Below are positions 3,516-16,215 of a stretch of 16,215 bases of DNA, one piece after another. Numbering within the stretch: the first letter of the stretch is position 1; each line of letters opens with the position of its first letter. Under the pieces are notes generated by a model that ran no database searches, was not told the origin of the DNA, and saw only the letters and a program-made list of their open reading frames with translations. Source of the stretch: a virus; IMG/VR virus record IMGVR_UViG_3300032217_000984; one strand, 5' to 3'. Made by a program: the position numbers and the translations under genes.

Positions 3516-4742
3516 ATGAAGATTTCCGAGATGCATGAGAAGCGCAAGGCGCTTACCGCCGAGCGGGACACGATTCTGACCGCGTCCGAAATGACTGTCG
3601 AGCAGGAAGCGCGCGGCCACGAAGTCGCCAACGAACTGCAGAAGCTCGATGGCGAGATCCGCGCCGCGCAGATGCGCGAGCGTTTCGCGTCCTACAGCGC
3701 GATGGAGAAGGCCGTCGAAGACGGCAACAAGCGCAACACCGATTGGACCGCAACGACCGAGTACCGCGACCAGTGGATCAACTGGTGCCGTGGTGGCCGT
3801 GCGCCGGAAACCCGCGCCATCGACACGTCGTCGTCCAGCGGCGTGCTGGTCCCGAAGATCTACGAAGCCGGGATCCTGAAGTACCTGGAGCGGAACACCG
3901 TGGTCCGCAACCTGGCCGACCTGCGTACGGGCGTCAAGGGCAGCGTGACCATGCGCGTCAACACCCTGGAAACCGACGCGGCTACGTCGTCGTTCTGGAC
4001 CACCGAGTCCAGCAAGACGGCGACGGCCATTGACGGCGCGTGGGCCGAAGTCAACATGAACCCCGTCGGCGGTCTGCCGAAGTCGGAACTGACGCAGTGG
4101 GTTGTGCGGCAGTCGGATTTCGACGTTGAAACCGAAGTCATGGACAATTTGCAGCGGCAGATTGCCCGTGGTTTGGAGTACGGCTACACCATCGGCACCG
4201 GCAGCGATCAGCCCACCGGCCTGTTCCTGCAGAACGCTAATTTCAAGGGCCTGAGCACCGCCTACAGCGCGGCGCACGCCAGCGGTGCAGGTTGGGATGC
4301 TGCATTCACCGTGGCGCGCCTCACCGAGCTGCGCTACAAGACGCTGCCCGCTGAGTACTGGTCGTCCGCTGCGTGGATCATGTCGCAGGACGCGTACTAC
4401 GCCATCGCGCAGCTGGTCTCTGCGTCCGGTTCCAATGTGCCGCTGTTCGTGCCGTCGTCCGACGCTGGCATCACCAATGCGGCGCCGTTCACGCTGATGG
4501 GACGGCCGGTGTACATCGCACCGTACGCCCCGGGCCGTCAGACGGCAGCCGTGTCGAACAGCATCCCGCTCATGTTCGCCAACGTGTCCGAAGCGTTCGC
4601 CATCCGCGAGTGGGGCGGTGTGAATATGTTCCGCGACGATGTGACCACCCCAGGACTGGTCAAGTTCCAGGGCATGGTGTTCACCAACAGCAAGGTGATC
4701 CGGCCGAAGGCCGTCGCCGCGCTGCGCATCACCCTCACCTGA
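3516..4742 (+). CDS. Major capsid protein (HK97 fold) with N-terminal coiled-coil delta-like region
   Basis: 408-aa ORF with an AAGGAG RBS at 3502-3507. It has a charged helical N-terminus (EKRKALTAERD...) followed by a capsid-like core, and lies immediately after the protease. Confidence 0.9.
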   Translation: MKISEMHEKRKALTAERDTILTASEMTVEQEARGHEVANELQKLDGEIRAAQMRERFASYSAMEKAVEDGNKRNTDWTATTEYRDQWINWCRGGRAPETRAIDTSSSSGVLVPKIYEAGILKYLERNTVVRNLADLRTGVKGSVTMRVNTLETDAATSSFWTTESSKTATAIDGAWAEVNMNPVGGLPKSELTQWVVRQSDFDVETEVMDNLQRQIARGLEYGYTIGTGSDQPTGLFLQNANFKGLSTAYSAAHASGAGWDAAFTVARLTELRYKTLPAEYWSSAAWIMSQDAYYAIAQLVSASGSNVPLFVPSSDAGITNAAPFTLMGRPVYIAPYAPGRQTAAVSNSIPLMFANVSEAFAIREWGGVNMFRDDVTTPGLVKFQGMVFTNSKVIRPKAVAALRITLT

Positions 4743-12254: not shown

Positions 12255-12458
12255 ATGCGGTGCTTTCACATCGTGGAAGGCGAACCCGTGGCTGCCGATT
12301 GTCCGCCAAAGTTCACCGGCCTGGGCGACGTGATCGCCGACGGCACAAAGGCGCTCGGGGTACACCCGTGCGGCAAGTGCAAGAAACGCCAGGCGTGGCT
12401 GAACCGCTGGACGCCCGCCTGGCTGGCAGGTCTGATATCGCGGATTCGTTCCCGTTGA
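12255..12458 (+). CDS. 67-aa CxxC mini-protein with amphipathic/hydrophobic C-terminus
   Basis: Internal ATG 12255 of the 11943..12458 frame, preceded by GGAAGGGCGAAGAG. Sequence MRCFHIVEGEP...GLGDVIADGTKALGVHPCGKCKKRQAWLNRW. The upstream part of that frame overlaps the Cys-rich gene and looks non-coding. Confidence 0.45.
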   Translation: MRCFHIVEGEPVAADCPPKFTGLGDVIADGTKALGVHPCGKCKKRQAWLNRWTPAWLAGLISRIRSR

Positions 12459-12459
12459 A

Positions 12460-12858
12460 TTGTGGTGGATTGTGGTGCAGATTGACTACAATCCTGGAAT
12501 GAATCCAAGCATCCGGACGGCTATGGAAAGACGCGACGCCACCAGGGGCGAATGGTGGCTGGCGCGCATGGATACAGACCCGCCAGGCCAATGGACGCTG
12601 ACGGCAGACCCGGCTGGCCCGTGGGATTGGCGTTTCAAGGTGGGGTCTTGCAAGTCGCGCGCGGTGCAACGCCTGCGCGCAGCTGCAGATAGGGAAGCGA
12701 ATAACAGGCGCAGGTTACTGGCCACGCCTGAACACGCAAAAAAGTGTGTTACGGGGCAGGGAAATCTACTTGCAATTCCGGGACTGACCGATACTATCTC
12801 CGCCAAGCGCGGATTGCACCAGTTTGCGGTGGATGCTGATAACGTTGTCCCTGTTTAA
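12460..12858 (+). CDS. Hypothetical protein (start uncertain: TTG 12460, GTG 12472/12475 or ATG 12499)
   Basis: 132-aa ORF, Trp/Arg-rich. Last gene before the AT-richer intergenic gap. No family recognised. Confidence 0.4.
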   Translation: MWWIVVQIDYNPGMNPSIRTAMERRDATRGEWWLARMDTDPPGQWTLTADPAGPWDWRFKVGSCKSRAVQRLRAAADREANNRRRLLATPEHAKKCVTGQGNLLAIPGLTDTISAKRGLHQFAVDADNVVPV

Positions 12859-12932
12859 CAGATTGCAATTTATCATAACACGCATCCCACCACTTTAGCG
12901 AACCTTTCCGCGCTCCAGCCATTGGAGCGAAG
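12859..12932 (+). promoter_or_regulatory. Largest intergenic gap; candidate early promoter/operator region
   Basis: It is the AT-richest stretch of the window. It contains the ATTGCAAT palindrome (12862-12869), a TATCAT -10-like hexamer (12871-12876) with no well-spaced -35, and a GCTCCA-GCCAT-TGGAGC hairpin (12912-12928) covering the GGAG RBS of the RHH gene. Confidence 0.3.
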
Positions 12933-13148
12933 ATGAACGGACACGATGAAAGGAAGACGCGGAAGCGCCGACGGGCCGCAGTTCTTGCGGCAGAACCAGC
13001 GAAGCAGATCAGGATTGGGGAATCGGTCTATCAGTCGCTGATTGCCGAAGCGGTGGTTGCCAAGCGCAGCGTGCGTGGCCAGGCTGAATACCTGATCACG
13101 ATGGGCATCCAGCGCGCGCTAGAACTGGAAACGCGGGGTGCCGCGTGA
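12933..13148 (+). CDS. Ribbon-helix-helix (Arc/MetJ/CopG-like) DNA-binding protein
   Basis: 71 aa with a basic N-terminal arm (RKTRKRRR), then IRIGESVYQSLIAEAVVAKRSVRGQAEYLITMGI, which fits a strand-helix-helix pattern. First gene of the replication block. Confidence 0.55.
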   Translation: MNGHDERKTRKRRRAAVLAAEPAKQIRIGESVYQSLIAEAVVAKRSVRGQAEYLITMGIQRALELETRGAA

Positions 13149-13918
13149 GTGCCATCCAGTTGCACAGCCCGATGGAACTGCACACCCGCAACCAGCAGGC
13201 AATCACTGCCGTGCGGGAGGTGGTGCAGACCCACTACATGAACCGCATCCAGGGGCGCGCCTACCTCATGGTGGCAGGGGCGCAGGCTATTGCCACCGCC
13301 CTGGGCTACACGACGGGCATCGAATCGGTGCGGCATATTCCGGCCACCGATGACCTGCCGGGCTACTGGGAAGCCACCGCCACCGTCATGCAGTCGGGGC
13401 AGGTGGTCGGGCGTGGCGTCGCAGCTGTGTTCGACGACGAACGCCCGTGGAACACCCGCCCACACTTCGCACGCCAGGCGATGGCGCAGACCCGCGCAAC
13501 CGGCCGAGCGTTGAAGGGCGTCATGGGCTGGGCGTGCGCCATGATCGGCGCAGAAACGTCACTGGCTGAGGAGATGCCGCAGGAAGGCGCTACGGTGCCC
13601 CAGGATGGCACGGAAGGCGTCAAGCGCATTCCGGCCCGTCCGGCTGCTCTGAAAGTGTCTAAAGGCAATGCTGGGGCGACACGCGAGATTCGCGGAATTT
13701 GTGCGGGAGTCAAGGAACTGACCAGCAAGGCCGGGAAGCCGTACTGGCGAATTGCCTTGGAGGGGGAACCCGGCAAGCCGGACCCCGAGTGGACTTCCTT
13801 TAAGCCGGTGCCGGACATGGCTGGCCGCATGGTCAAGGTGGTGCTGGAATCGAAGGTCAACGCGAAAGGGGAGTCTGGCGACATTGCCCTGGACGTGATT
13901 GATTTGGAGGTTGACTGA
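13145..13918 (+). CDS. Possible single-strand annealing / recombination protein (RecT/ERF-like motif) with C-terminal OB-like domain
   Basis: The FARQAMAQTRATGRALKGV segment resembles the conserved helix of phage annealases (compare the RecT AMAKKTAIRRLFK-type motif). A nuclease gene follows. This is a weak, motif-level call. Confidence 0.3.
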   Translation: MSAIQLHSPMELHTRNQQAITAVREVVQTHYMNRIQGRAYLMVAGAQAIATALGYTTGIESVRHIPATDDLPGYWEATATVMQSGQVVGRGVAAVFDDERPWNTRPHFARQAMAQTRATGRALKGVMGWACAMIGAETSLAEEMPQEGATVPQDGTEGVKRIPARPAALKVSKGNAGATREIRGICAGVKELTSKAGKPYWRIALEGEPGKPDPEWTSFKPVPDMAGRMVKVVLESKVNAKGESGDIALDVIDLEVD

Positions 13919-14496
13919 TGCGGTGGACGCCTGAATACGTGCTAGACGGCGCGGATCAGGTGTATTGCCGCACCACGGCGACGAATCGCCACGCGGTGCG
14001 TCGGGCTTCCTACTTGGCTGATCGCGGAGTGACGCGTCAGTGGAAGACGGAAGGCGAGCAGCTGCGCGTTGATTTCGTCGGCGTCGGCGGTGAATTGTGC
14101 GTCCGAAAGTGCTTGGAAATGCCACAGCAGTGGGATGACCGGGAAACCGAAGGGCGACACGACCTGATCTACCAGGGCCACCGCATCGACGTGAAGACAA
14201 CCACCAATTCCGATCCTTGGCTGATCGTGCGGAAGACGGCGTTGCACGTGGACGCCTATGTGCTGGTGAATTACTGCGATGGACGGTTTAGGGTCTGCGG
14301 TTGGCAGACTGAAAGAATGGTCAAAAGTGAAGAGAACACCTGGAAGTGGGAACACGCCTACACCCTCAAAGAGCAGGCGCTTCGATGCATCACAGAATTG
14401 CGAGAGTGGGCAGGGGCGGATCCACCCAGGGCAGATATTTGCCCTGGGGGCTGCCTTGACGCCTACCGAAAGGTACGTGGCGATTGCGCTGGCTGA
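13918..14496 (+). CDS. PD-(D/E)xK superfamily nuclease
   Basis: GVGGELCV ... HDLIY ... IDVKT gives the E / D / (D/E)xK arrangement of restriction-endonuclease-fold nucleases. TGATG overlap with the upstream gene. Confidence 0.5.
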   Translation: MRWTPEYVLDGADQVYCRTTATNRHAVRRASYLADRGVTRQWKTEGEQLRVDFVGVGGELCVRKCLEMPQQWDDRETEGRHDLIYQGHRIDVKTTTNSDPWLIVRKTALHVDAYVLVNYCDGRFRVCGWQTERMVKSEENTWKWEHAYTLKEQALRCITELREWAGADPPRADICPGGCLDAYRKVRGDCAG

Positions 14497-15064
14497 CTAT
14501 GGGCAGCGAATCCACCCGAGCTTGGCGCACCTTTGCGCAAAGACGGGGCTGCACCGCAACACACTCAGCCGTGCAATTTGCTCCATGAGGGCGAAAGGCA
14601 TAATCAGGACTTACGGCACCGGCAAGGCGCTAACGTACACCCTTGATATGCACTTTAAAGGTGACGGTACCGTCACCTTAAAGGGTACGCACCATCACCT
14701 TAAAGGTGACGCACCGTCACCTTTAAAGGTACGGGATCCTAACTACCAAAGAACTACTAAAGAACCACCCGCGGCTGACGCCGCAAATGGGGGGCGGGAA
14801 GGGTTCGATGAATTGGTCCAAAGGATCCGAGTCCGTGACCCGAGAGCCGACATTGACGCGCAGCGCCGCGTGTGTTCGCGGGTGATGGAGCAGCATGGAC
14901 TTGCCAAGGAAGACATTCCGCCAGCGTGGCGGCTGTTGTGCCTGAACTGGGCGCGCACTGGCAACGCGCCGTACGACACTTTGCAACGCATCGTGACCAG
15001 CCTGGAGGGCGCGCGCGACGTTCGTGCCGTCGTCCTGCACAAGATCAAGGGGGTGGCAGCATGA
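14456..15064 (+). CDS. Replication initiator, lambda-O-like (N-terminal winged-HTH, iteron-containing linker, C-terminal domain)
   Basis: LTPTERYVAIALADYG....PSLAHLCAKTGLHRNTLSRAICSMRAKGII is HTH-like. The start is uncertain: TTG 14456 after GGGGG, or GTG 14477 after GAAAGG. ATG 14279 would overlap the nuclease gene by 218 nt and encodes an R/S/G-rich junk-like peptide. Confidence 0.55.
   Translation: MTPTERYVAIALADYGQRIHPSLAHLCAKTGLHRNTLSRAICSMRAKGIIRTYGTGKALTYTLDMHFKGDGTVTLKGTHHHLKGDAPSPLKVRDPNYQRTTKEPPAADAANGGREGFDELVQRIRVRDPRADIDAQRRVCSRVMEQHGLAKEDIPPAWRLLCLNWARTGNAPYDTLQRIVTSLEGARDVRAVVLHKIKGVAA
14651..14732. repeat. Candidate origin of replication: four dyad-symmetric iterons (consensus about TCACCTT(T)AAAGGTGAC) spaced 22-23 bp apart
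   Basis: Copies lie at 14651-14665, 14672-14688, 14694-14710 and 14716-14732. A perfect 18-bp palindrome GGTGACGGTACCGTCACC lies at 14660-14677. All are inside the initiator ORF. Confidence 0.7.
14741..14765. repeat. Tandem 11-mer AACTAC(C/T)AAAG x2.3, AT-richer; candidate DNA-unwinding element next to the iterons
   Basis: AACTACCAAAG (14741-14751), AACTACTAAAG (14752-14762), then AAC. It begins 9 bp after the last iteron. Confidence 0.45.
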
Positions 15065-15357
15065 CCGAGATACCGAATGACATGTGTGGACCTTGGGAGC
15101 GCAAGCTCAAGCGCGCCCAGCGCAGCATTTCGACCGGGTCAATTCCCGTGGACGTGGTCGAAGATCTGATTGCAATGATTGTATTTCAGCATGAGGATCT
15201 GCGCGAGCAAGACCGCAAGTGGCGCGAGCGCGAGCGGTTCCTGGAGCGGCAAATCGTGATGTGCGGCGGCGGGTTCGATAAGCGCGGCCTTGAGGGCGAA
15301 CGCGCAGGAGTCATCGTGAAACACGGCATCCATGAAGTGATTGAGGATGCACCATGA
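15061..15357 (+). CDS. Hypothetical protein, 98 aa (charged/coiled segment EDLREQDRKWRERERFLERQ)
   Basis: Internal ATG 15061 overlaps the initiator stop (ATGA). The upstream part of the 14872 frame overlaps the initiator gene. Confidence 0.5.
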   Translation: MTEIPNDMCGPWERKLKRAQRSISTGSIPVDVVEDLIAMIVFQHEDLREQDRKWRERERFLERQIVMCGGGFDKRGLEGERAGVIVKHGIHEVIEDAP

Positions 15358-15884
15358 ACGACGATGTGAGTGGCGTCGGCGTTGGTCCCGGTGCGCGTCG
15401 CACCGGGGCCTACAGCCGCCGCAAGGGAAAGAACGGCGAGCTTGAAGCCTGCGTTGTCATGGAGGCCGTGCTGGGCTTCCCCTGGCGCCGCACCGCTCAA
15501 CGGCGTGGCGATGGCACCGCCGACATTGAACCCGTGGACGGCGGGCGCATTGCCATCCACGTCGAAGTGAAGCGATACCAGGGGGGGTTGAAGTGGTGGA
15601 CCAACCGGCTGGCGGGATCGGATCGCGTGCACCTGGTCGATGCAAGTGGGTTGCTCATTGCCCGAGTCGAAGCAATTCGTAACGCCATGTTGCAAGACGG
15701 CGACCTTGCAACTGCGCCAAGGCAGGGTTGCGCCGAGAAATGGATGAAGCAAGCCGTTCGGGATGCGGAAGACGGATTGATCCCGGTGGTGCTGTGTCGC
15801 CAGGACAGGGGGCCGTGGATCCTGGCATGGCGATACGCGGACGACGATGCCCTAATGGCCATTCTGCGGAGGGCAATGGCGTGA
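15354..15884 (+). CDS. Hjc-like PD-(D/E)xK nuclease (candidate Holliday-junction resolvase)
   Basis: RKGKNGELEACVVMEAVLGFPWRRT...GDGTADIEP...IAIHVEVKR matches the kG..gE....L..G....R...G....D....-EvK pattern of Hjc-type resolvases. ATGA overlap upstream. Confidence 0.5.
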   Translation: MNDDVSGVGVGPGARRTGAYSRRKGKNGELEACVVMEAVLGFPWRRTAQRRGDGTADIEPVDGGRIAIHVEVKRYQGGLKWWTNRLAGSDRVHLVDASGLLIARVEAIRNAMLQDGDLATAPRQGCAEKWMKQAVRDAEDGLIPVVLCRQDRGPWILAWRYADDDALMAILRRAMA

Positions 15885-16159
15885 AGCGCCTCCGATTCAA
15901 CGGAGGCCTAGGAGAGGCGGCTAAGGCCGTTGCTGTGCCACGCAGTAGAGGCGGCACATGGACCAGGCTGGCCAAGTTGCACAAGGCGTGTCATCCCCAG
16001 TGCGTCGATTGCGGCAGCATCGTCGGCATTGAGACCGATCACGTAATACCGTTGCACCTTGGCGGCACCAACGCGTGGGGCAACCTTGCCAGTAGGTGCC
16101 ATGAGTGCCACTCGCGCAAGTCTGCAATCGAACAGCAGAAGAGGCAAGGGCTTACGTAA
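15881..16159 (+). CDS. HNH endonuclease (terminase-associated position)
   Basis: GTG 15881 overlaps the upstream stop (GTGA). Motifs CVDCG...ETDHVIPLHLGGTNAWGNLASRCHECHSRK supply the zinc-ligand pairs and the H-N-H residues. It is the last gene before the terminase, as in HK97-like cos phages. Confidence 0.8.
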   Translation: MKRLRFNGGLGEAAKAVAVPRSRGGTWTRLAKLHKACHPQCVDCGSIVGIETDHVIPLHLGGTNAWGNLASRCHECHSRKSAIEQQKRQGLT

Positions 16160-16173
16160 TGCCACGAAAGCAG

Positions 16174-16198
16174 CCCCCCCCCGCCCCCCCGGGGGGGG
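16174..16198. other. C9-G-C7-G8 homopolymer block at the genome junction; C7G7 is self-complementary. Candidate packaging/cos-related element, or part of the TerL N-terminal coding sequence.
   Basis: Read directly. The C7G8 part is duplicated at 1-15. Confidence 0.5.
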
Positions 16199-16215
16199 CC
16201 ATTCCTGTTGGGCAC
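16184..16215. repeat. Right copy of the 32-bp direct terminal repeat
   Basis: Identical to bases 1-32. Confidence 0.95.

Follow-up and report, generated by a model that had tools for sequence, protein, structure and literature searches.

Iteron plasmid origins (pPS10 RepA, F RepE, R6K pi) combine phased iterons of ~22 bp period with winged-helix initiators and an adjacent unwinding element; their iterons are direct repeats that lie outside the rep gene and are bound by monomers with two winged-helix domains. In lambdoid phages, the origin consists of iterons and an AT-rich tract and sits in the middle of gene O (PMC7466680). The GenBank record of lambda annotates four ori iterons at 39034-39118 inside the 900-nt gene O (38686-39585). 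Here, we describe a locus of related design in IMG/VR virus record IMGVR_UViG_3300032217_000984, a 16,215-nt stretch of viral DNA that we analyzed as a whole (hereafter, the window). Within a gene for a putative replication initiator, an array of four dyad iterons is followed by an A/C-rich spacer and a GC hairpin. We consider it likely that array, spacer, and hairpin together constitute the vegetative replication origin of this ~16.2-kb phage, a lambda-ori-like element located in the initiator's own linker. An initial annotation of the window had already proposed the array as the ori of the phage, and comparison with relatives lends strong support to that proposal through the replication-initiator matches in PHROGs, a 22-bp period that recurs in relatives, and a lambda-type layout.

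Iterons, spacer and hairpin in the linker of a probable initiator gene

The elements of the locus are the following.

14456-15064, + strand: initiator gene, 202 aa from TTG at 14456 in the list of open reading frames (ORFs)
14456-14644, + strand: region coding for the N-terminal winged helix, residues 1-63, with the recognition helix at ~34-46 and the wing at ~50-63
14651-14665: iteron 1, CACTTTAAAGGTGAC, left arm degenerate
14672-14688: iteron 2, GTCACCTTAAAGGGTAC, right arm degenerate
14694-14710: iteron 3, ATCACCTTAAAGGTGAC, the best dyad
14716-14732: iteron 4, GTCACCTTTAAAGGTAC, right arm degenerate
14734-14739: GGATCC junction closing the array, seen in most half-site classes (73 distinct linkers)
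14740-14770, + strand: A/C-rich, G-poor spacer of low stability, with 2.6 copies of the 11-mer AACTACCAAAG; proposed unwinding element
14771-14784: conserved hairpin or palindrome GCGGC-TGAC-GCCGC, missed by the initial annotation and followed by a G-run at 14789-14794
14804-15061, + strand: region coding for the C-terminal five-helix domain, residues ~117-202

A repeat search returned one family of four 21-nt copies (14646-14666, 14669-14689, 14691-14711, and 14713-14733; spacing 23/22/22), and every element of the initial annotation was recovered where it had been placed, including the four copies that start at 14651, 14672, 14694, and 14716. In Tandem Repeats Finder, no other tandem repeat of the genome comes near the score of the array (14651-14730; period 22, 3.5 copies, score 107). 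When a 17-nt dyad consensus was allowed at most 3 mismatches, it matched four times, always within the array (two of these matches being both strands of iteron 4); shuffled sequences gave a mean of 0.03 matches, and none of 200 shuffles reached four. Likewise, the whole window has nine half-site matches, of which seven fall in the array. An 18-bp perfect palindrome, GGTGACGGTACCGTCACC, lies at 14660-14677, as annotated. The statement that each copy is internally palindromic stands insofar as all four are dyads, and needs qualification for the left arm of iteron 1 and the right arms of iterons 2 and 4, which are degenerate. The array is effectively a series of eight alternating half-sites, GTCACC and GGTGAC, about one helical turn apart, in which the degenerate half-sites are both outermost ones and the right arm of iteron 2.

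Folded as single-stranded DNA, the array (14646-14735) forms a single extended hairpin (-29.9 kcal/mol, z = -8.3) through pairing of iterons 1 and 4 and of iterons 2 and 3. This palindromic fold gives the array cruciform potential and accounts for its only matches in Rfam, which are to miRNA precursors and far below threshold. There are no DnaA boxes near the array, and GATC is not locally enriched at it.

The repeats occupy the linker between the N-terminal helix-turn-helix (HTH) region and the C-terminal part of the protein, where they encode the peptide already given in the initial annotation (...HFKGDGTVTLKGTHHHLKGDAPSPLKV...). In an AlphaFold2 model built with a 33-sequence alignment, residues 1-63 form a winged helix (predicted local distance difference test [pLDDT] 70-84) and residues 117-201 a C-terminal domain (C-domain) of five helices (pLDDT 80-87). 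Residues 67-115, between the two domains, have pLDDT below 50 and correspond to a disordered linker. The array covers residues 66-93 of 202 and thus lies in or at the edge of the low-pLDDT segment, as do the spacer and the hairpin; these DNA elements are therefore located where the protein tolerates almost any sequence.

The core motif CACYTT begins in codon phases 0, 2, 0, and 1 in the four iterons, so that one DNA unit is translated in each of the three frames. In a set of 70 distinct full-length genes, the entropy at codon positions 1/2/3 was 0.76/0.53/0.97 in the N-terminal domain (N-domain) and 0.66/0.52/1.02 in the C-domain, which is the usual protein-coding pattern. In the iteron segment, it was flat (1.48/1.49/1.61), and amino-acid entropy was high. 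The three codon phases and the flat entropy argue that constraint on the array acts on DNA rather than on the peptide.

In the spacer, the tandem 11-mers AACTACCAAAG and AACTACTAAAG were confirmed at 14741-14762, and a third, degenerate copy extends to 14769 (2.6 copies by Tandem Repeats Finder). The initial annotation had called this element AT-richer. It is lower in GC than the genome, but its character is A/C-rich and G-poor rather than AT-rich: GC content is ~35% in a 40-bp stretch of the window and averages 45% in the family, compared with 61% for the genome. The family spacer (31-37 nt after GGATCC) has a coding-strand composition of 40% A, 37% C, 14% T, and 9% G and carries phased (T)AAC motifs every 11 to 12 nt, of which the 11-mer repeat of the window is a local version. 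When the genome was scanned in windows of 30 to 40 bp, 14722-14765 was the second least stable 40-bp stretch, and array plus spacer (14643-14765) was the least stable segment of 100 to 120 bp.

The hairpin shows covariation. In 32 distinct sequences, its five pairs are complementary in 160 of 160 cells; two-sided changes occur at four of the five pairs (19 cells), and one-sided changes at none. None of 500 shuffles reached the observed values, and sliding the register by one to three columns left 21 to 67% of cells paired. The wobble pair occurs in the states G-C, C-G, T-A, and A-T. Pairing is kept while the encoded peptide changes from AADAA to PADAG, APDGA, TADAV, or ASQRW, so that compensatory changes include nonsynonymous ones; L139 and L144 encode unrelated peptides at the hairpin and have 6-bp stems. 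Entropy at the third codon position is 0.64 here, lower than in the folded domains. The absence of G-T intermediates weakly suggests a DNA palindrome rather than an RNA hairpin. Folding of the hairpin region alone with ViennaRNA, using the copy in the window, gave energies that were not significant (z = -1.5 and -2.2), and the case for the hairpin therefore rests on covariation. A scan flagged the hairpin as a minus-strand terminator; this candidate was rejected, as the number of such matches equals chance and relatives have no T-run there.

The probable initiator protein and its relatives

Homologues of the initiator with lengths of 200 to 235 aa number 62. PHROG profiles were matched against 33 family members, and the informative matches were all to families labeled 'replication initiation' or 'O-like': phrog_270 was found in 32 of 33 members (best E 3e-11) and the 'O-like' phrog_678 in 31 of 33 (best E 8e-7). 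None of the 33 matched small-subunit terminase or repressor families of PHROGs. HTH_36 (PF13730) was matched by all 33 relatives at E up to 0.1 (best E 6.6e-10). These matches support the annotation of the gene as a probable replication initiator. Foldseek comparison of the N-domain with the PDB returned winged-helix DNA binders at root-mean-square deviations of 2 to 3 Å, and in this search and a sequence-profile search of the PDB, only generic winged helices were found. Among predicted viral structures, the best matches were two-domain phage proteins labeled HTH, 'GpO N-terminal', 'replication initiator', or 'replisome organizer'; their TM-scores are low (0.26-0.33), an effect of the undefined placement of the two domains relative to each other. 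When 1.8 billion representative proteins were searched with the C-domain, only 18 clusters were found, and this domain is confined to the phage group of the window. In the longer proteins of these clusters, it is carried at the C-terminal end, as in the window, and domain fusions therefore offer no clue to its function.

The start of the initiator gene is uncertain, as the frame is open back to an ATG at 14279. In relatives of the same iteron class as the window, gene callers start at the TTG equivalent to 14456. The in-frame codons 14402-14455 (…IHPGQIFALGAA) resemble the N-terminus of longer homologues, one of which (P0023) starts MSKHHPGEIFALGAALTPTEKY. Between 14327 and 14456, there is no ATG, GTG, or TTG; the upstream gene (13918-14496) overlaps this stretch with its 3′ end.

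Linker DNA was taken from 149 loci, giving 73 distinct sequences. In all 73, the array lies upstream of a conserved GGGATCC, replaced in some classes by GGGATTC, GGGATTA, or AGAGCYAC. Over all lags from 12 to 33 nt, the best autocorrelation lag was 22 nt in 72 sequences and 23 nt in one. The initial annotation had named, as evidence that would count against an origin, close relatives that retain the protein but have lost the repeats; no such case was seen, as 73 of 73 keep the 22- to 23-bp period. Where four perfect dyads can be called, their centers are 23, 22, and 22 bp apart in unrelated sequence classes. By half-site, the arrays can be sorted into 10 or more classes, and every class has a recognition-helix signature of its own. 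Half-sites and, where listed, helix signatures are as follows.

TCACC, the window: helix NTLSRAI
CTCCGG-N7-CCGGAG, L026: helix DTVSATI
TGT(C/A)GC-N5-GC(G/T)ACA, L031: helix TVN(K/R)AL
GACACC, L068: helix ATVKRVM
TCGCTC, L073: helix STVKRTL
CTACGCC, L117
GCGTCAG, L029
TGCGGCA, L048
GGCAC, L144
CTCTGC, L087

Members of a class vary mostly in the dyad centers and hardly at all in the dyad arms or in the spacers between iterons. N-domain identity within a class has a minimum of 0.74 and a median of 0.90; across classes, it reaches at most 0.82, with a median of 0.52. N-domain identity goes with iteron class, and C-domain identity is uncoupled from it: the C-domains are at least 95% identical in 90 pairs of different class and at most 50% identical in 153 pairs of the same class. 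The clearest example comes from comparing the window with L026. Their flanks are 94 to 100% identical and their C-domains identical, and a ~255-bp block (~14500-14755) is replaced. This block extends from helix 2 through the wing (the reading head) and includes all four iterons, which change from GTCACC to CTCCGG; synonymous and nonsynonymous differences are both present. If the protein binds its presumed sites, a cassette made up of precisely these sites and the reading head would be expected. Binding of the protein to its own coding sequence, as the initial annotation had suggested, is thus made plausible by the class-specific helix signatures, the tracking of iteron class by the N-domain, and the exchange of the cassette.

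Mechanism, genome context and alternative explanations

The anatomy of the locus, its conservation, the DNA-level constraint, the co-variation of reading head and iterons, and the covariation of the hairpin are observed. From them, we infer binding, unwinding, recruitment, and origin activity, for which we propose the following mechanism. Dimers of the N-terminal winged helix would bind the four dyad iterons. Because the iterons are two helical turns apart, the dimers would be arranged on one face of the DNA and could assemble into an 'O-some'-like higher-order complex. Strain from this complex would open the adjacent low-stability A/C-rich spacer (14740-14770), the far edge of the opened region being marked by the GC hairpin (14771-14784). 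The hairpin may be extruded as single-stranded DNA, either stabilizing the opening or providing a loading or priming signal. The C-terminal helical domain would recruit host replication proteins, since no helicase, primase, or polymerase was recognized among the scanned ORFs of the genome. We put forward only tentatively the joint proposal that the GC hairpin is a functional single-stranded DNA structure (a helicase-loading or priming signal, or a bubble clamp) and that the ~255-bp cassette is an exchangeable replication-specificity module; we hold it to be rather less probable than not. The cassette has perhaps diversified into at least 10 mutually non-cognate types under selection against cross-initiation or exclusion between co-infecting relatives.

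Several observations weigh against an origin of the lambda type. The window protein scores 21.8 to 23.1 bits against HTH_36, just below the Pfam gathering cutoff of 25 bits, and Pfam scans of the window protein and 33 relatives gave no match to Phage_rep_O. An hhalign comparison with lambda O gave an alignment that is topologically sensible and covers the winged helix only (E 0.014, probability 3%), and the window protein is not a demonstrable homologue of lambda O beyond the winged helix. A P-like partner or helicase loader was not identified: co-variation of the downstream ORF with the C-domain was tested, and the correlation is weak (r = 0.33); the length of this ORF also varies among relatives. 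The spacer is only moderately AT-rich, at a family mean of 45% GC. At the hairpin, an Ala-Ala-x-Ala-Ala peptide (GCN GCN ... GCN GCN) gives much of the palindrome automatically, and the evidence for a hairpin therefore comes from the wobble pair and the non-Ala variants. The co-variation of N-domain and iterons could partly reflect linkage, because the two are physically adjacent. Finally, cumulative GC skew, proposed as a check in the initial annotation, rises monotonically with no inflection because all genes are on one strand, and it is uninformative.

The window represents one complete unit of the genome: the 32 bases at its start recur at its end, so that the unit measures 16,183 bp, at 61% GC. 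All recognized genes are on the + strand.

39-1799, + strand: TerL
1846-2997, + strand: portal
between portal and capsid gene in the listed order, + strand: prohead protease
3516-4742, + strand: HK97-type capsid protein; connector and tail genes were also recognized
~12,900-16,159: early/replication block, with several proteins of unknown function, the initiator gene, a 98-aa ORF, a PDDEXK_15 / RusA-like nuclease, and an HNH endonuclease
15061-15357: 98-aa ORF downstream of the initiator gene, matching no family
15354-15884: gene for the PDDEXK_15 / RusA-like nuclease (resolvase)
15728-16159: ORF of the HNH endonuclease

The PDDEXK_15 / RusA-like and HNH ORFs as listed share 157 nt. Within its ORF, the HNH domain takes up residues 92-132 only, and in relative L027, the HNH gene is called with 62 aa; the true HNH start therefore probably lies well downstream of 15728. 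For the two genes just upstream of the initiator gene (13145-13918 and 13918-14496), the sole matches are to PHROGs without known function (phrog_19042 and phrog_18407). On visual inspection, a D...IDVK motif in the second is reminiscent of PD-(D/E)XK nucleases, and the two genes might form a recombination module. Among the ORFs scanned, which do not cover every ORF of the window, no helicase, primase, or polymerase family was recognized, and no small-terminase gene was recognized between the HNH gene and TerL or elsewhere. From the end of the HNH ORF at 16159 to the TerL start at 39 of the next unit, there is the GC-rich terminal region alone, and HNH and TerL are also directly adjacent in relatives such as L027.

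This terminal region has features of its own. The 32-bp direct terminal repeat (1-32 and 16184-16215) adjoins a C9-G-C7-G8 homopolymer palindrome, and 16168-16199 is GC-rich. Many independent contigs of relatives from different samples (L040, L045, L048, L050, L054, L057, L062, and L075) end at a conserved ...TGGG(G)(C)AC beside the C-run/G-run palindrome; this motif falls between HNH and TerL, at a distance of 1.0 to 1.16 kb downstream of the initiator gene. These shared ends have the appearance of true ends of virion DNA (cos or a short terminal repeat) and not of arbitrary breaks in a circular assembly. The terminal region between HNH and TerL is thus a separate candidate packaging site, and a better one than the array.

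The TerL of the window is at most 26% identical to that of any cultured or deposited phage, which leaves no cultured relative from which knowledge could be transferred; among 50,697 phage records, neither megablast with 12500-16215 nor tblastn with the initiator found a match. In IMG/VR and JGI metagenome contigs, by comparison, there are ~150 related loci, many of them on contigs of 16 to 18 kb, and this is therefore a real and widespread group of very small tailed phages. In some relatives, a tyrosine integrase (Phage_integrase) is encoded a few genes upstream of the initiator (L027, 8061-8870; L028, 1952-2761), and no integrase family was seen among the scanned ORFs of the window; the group may therefore include temperate and non-integrating members alike. 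The sole match in 185,579 species-representative genomes, L001 (JBMOHS010000352.1), is a 2.1-kb contig binned in a Blastocatellia metagenome-assembled genome, which is weak evidence for Blastocatellia as host.

Four other explanations of the array were weighed against an origin. It could be an operator or roadblock, bound by a winged-helix transcription regulator inside its own gene and having no origin function. The closest solved structures to the N-domain are indeed generic winged-helix repressors (ArsR, MarR, and Fur types), and JGI labels many homologues 'biotin operon repressor'; such a role could also coexist with origin function, since many initiators autoregulate. An operator alone is nonetheless improbable in our estimate, as the informative family-level PHROG matches are all to replication initiators, no promoter-like site was found in 12400-16215, and the genome holds no further copy of the site; moreover, four strictly phased dyads in a coding linker, with a low-stability spacer at fixed distance and a covarying hairpin, are the anatomy of an origin. 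Chance, or a low-complexity or duplicated peptide linker of which the array would be a by-product with no DNA function, has a negligible probability. The encoded peptides are superficially repetitive (xLKGx) and the linker is disordered, as such an explanation would have it. However, the repeat core is read in three codon phases, entropy does not differ between the codon positions, the peptides encoded by arrays of identical 22-bp period in relatives are unrelated, arms are nearly invariant as dyad centers drift, and four matches were observed against a chance expectation of 0.03. Shuffles, entropy, codon phases, and the kept period thus rule out chance or a peptide repeat as the source of the array.

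The most serious alternative, because no small-terminase gene (terS) is recognizable and the initiator gene is near TerL, is a packaging site (pac or cosB-like) inside a small-terminase gene, as in P22, SPP1, and P1. Small terminases have an N-terminal HTH, as this protein does, and some phages place pac inside terS; here, the gene is only three genes upstream of TerL (39-1799), and no terS was recognized between the latter and the HNH gene (15728-16159). We judge this alternative very unlikely all the same, given that neither Pfam nor PHROGs returned a terS match and 32 of 33 members match replication-initiator PHROGs, that the conserved contig termini and 32-bp terminal repeat lie 1.0 to 1.16 kb downstream as a separate and better packaging candidate, and that the gene adjoins the PDDEXK_15 / RusA-like resolvase gene (15354-15884), the position of gene O in the lambdoid gene order. 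A similarly slim probability attaches to a centromere-like partition site, bound by a winged-helix centromere-binding protein in plasmid-like maintenance. Partition sites are likewise phased repeat arrays, and the Foldseek matches include the centromere binders AspA (pNOB8) and TubR, but these matches reflect the generic winged helix only (E ~0.02-0.07). Neither the window nor the gene tables of relatives hold a recognized NTPase of the ParA, ParM, or TubZ type, and some relatives carry an integrase and would be maintained by integration.

Meaning and comparison with known origins

Read as a replication origin, the locus provides a well-supported origin annotation for widespread, uncultivated, very small tailed phages (~16-18 kb) that have no recognizable helicase, primase, or polymerase. 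The kind of origin is already known: the lambda solution, in which the origin is placed in the initiator's own linker, recurs here with an initiator that has no demonstrable O homology beyond the winged helix. What is new is the host group of tiny uncultivated phages, apparently wholly dependent on host replication enzymes; the initiator itself, which pairs a winged helix with a private C-domain; and a natural series of at least 10 reading-head/iteron cassettes together with a covarying hairpin at the edge of a putative unwinding tract. With at least 10 natural combinations of recognition helix and half-site, all on one fixed scaffold, the family makes up a data set for decoding winged-helix specificity, and its cassettes offer material for testing the exchange of origin specificity by recombination. 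If the cassette is indeed a specificity module, the family would amount to a natural recognition-code table in which winged-helix variants are paired with DNA sites. The covarying hairpin provides a mutable handle on a poorly understood palindrome that also flanks lambda ori.

Lambda ori was measured with the same tools as the window. The repeat tool found four dyads of 18 to 20 nt at 20/24/23 bp, and these are followed by an A-rich coding-strand tract of ~40 nt and, beyond it, an inverted repeat whose 12-nt arms enclose a 4-nt spacer. The lambdoid architecture invoked in the initial annotation, an ori inside gene O with dyad iterons and then an AT-rich region, has the same order in the lambda record (PMC7466680). 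As in lambda and the lambdoid and Shiga toxin (Stx) phages, the proposed origin of the window is placed centrally in the initiator gene, where a linker joins the domains. As in lambda, there are four dyad iterons of 17 to 19 bp about two helical turns apart (20/24/23 in lambda and 23/22/22 in the window), then a coding-strand tract of 30 to 40 bp that is rich in A, and beyond it a palindrome whose arms are separated by 4 nt. In order, scale, and strand asymmetry, the element therefore matches lambda ori. The lambdoid and Stx origins also share the use of N-terminal winged helix and iterons as a specificity module, with the C-domain exchanged separately (PMC7466680). The differences from lambda lie in the protein, which has 202 rather than 299 aa and an unrelated C-domain confined to its own phage group; in the helicase loader, no P-like protein having been identified in the window; in the spacer, which is A/C-rich and not truly AT-rich; in the palindrome arms, which are 5 to 6 bp in the window family and 12 bp in lambda; and in the genome, which is ~16 kb at 61% GC.

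The family-wide 'O-like' PHROG matches make a remote relationship of the N-domain to lambda O possible. The protein also resembles initiators of the HTH_36 / DnaD_N type and replisome organizers (PHROGs 270, 678, 1032, and 391), with which it shares an N-terminal winged helix, of the HTH_36 type going by matches across the family, and a two-domain design with a flexible linker; it differs from them in that matches are confined to the N-domain and in lying just under the HTH_36 cutoff. With the iteron plasmids, the window has in common phased iterons of ~22 bp period beside a putative unwinding element and a winged-helix initiator. It differs from these Rep_3 systems in that its iterons are dyads inside the gene, a single winged helix is modeled, and no Rep_3 match was returned by Pfam scans of the window protein and 33 relatives. 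Iterons built as dyads would imply dimers with one winged helix each, in place of the two-domain monomers of the plasmid initiators.

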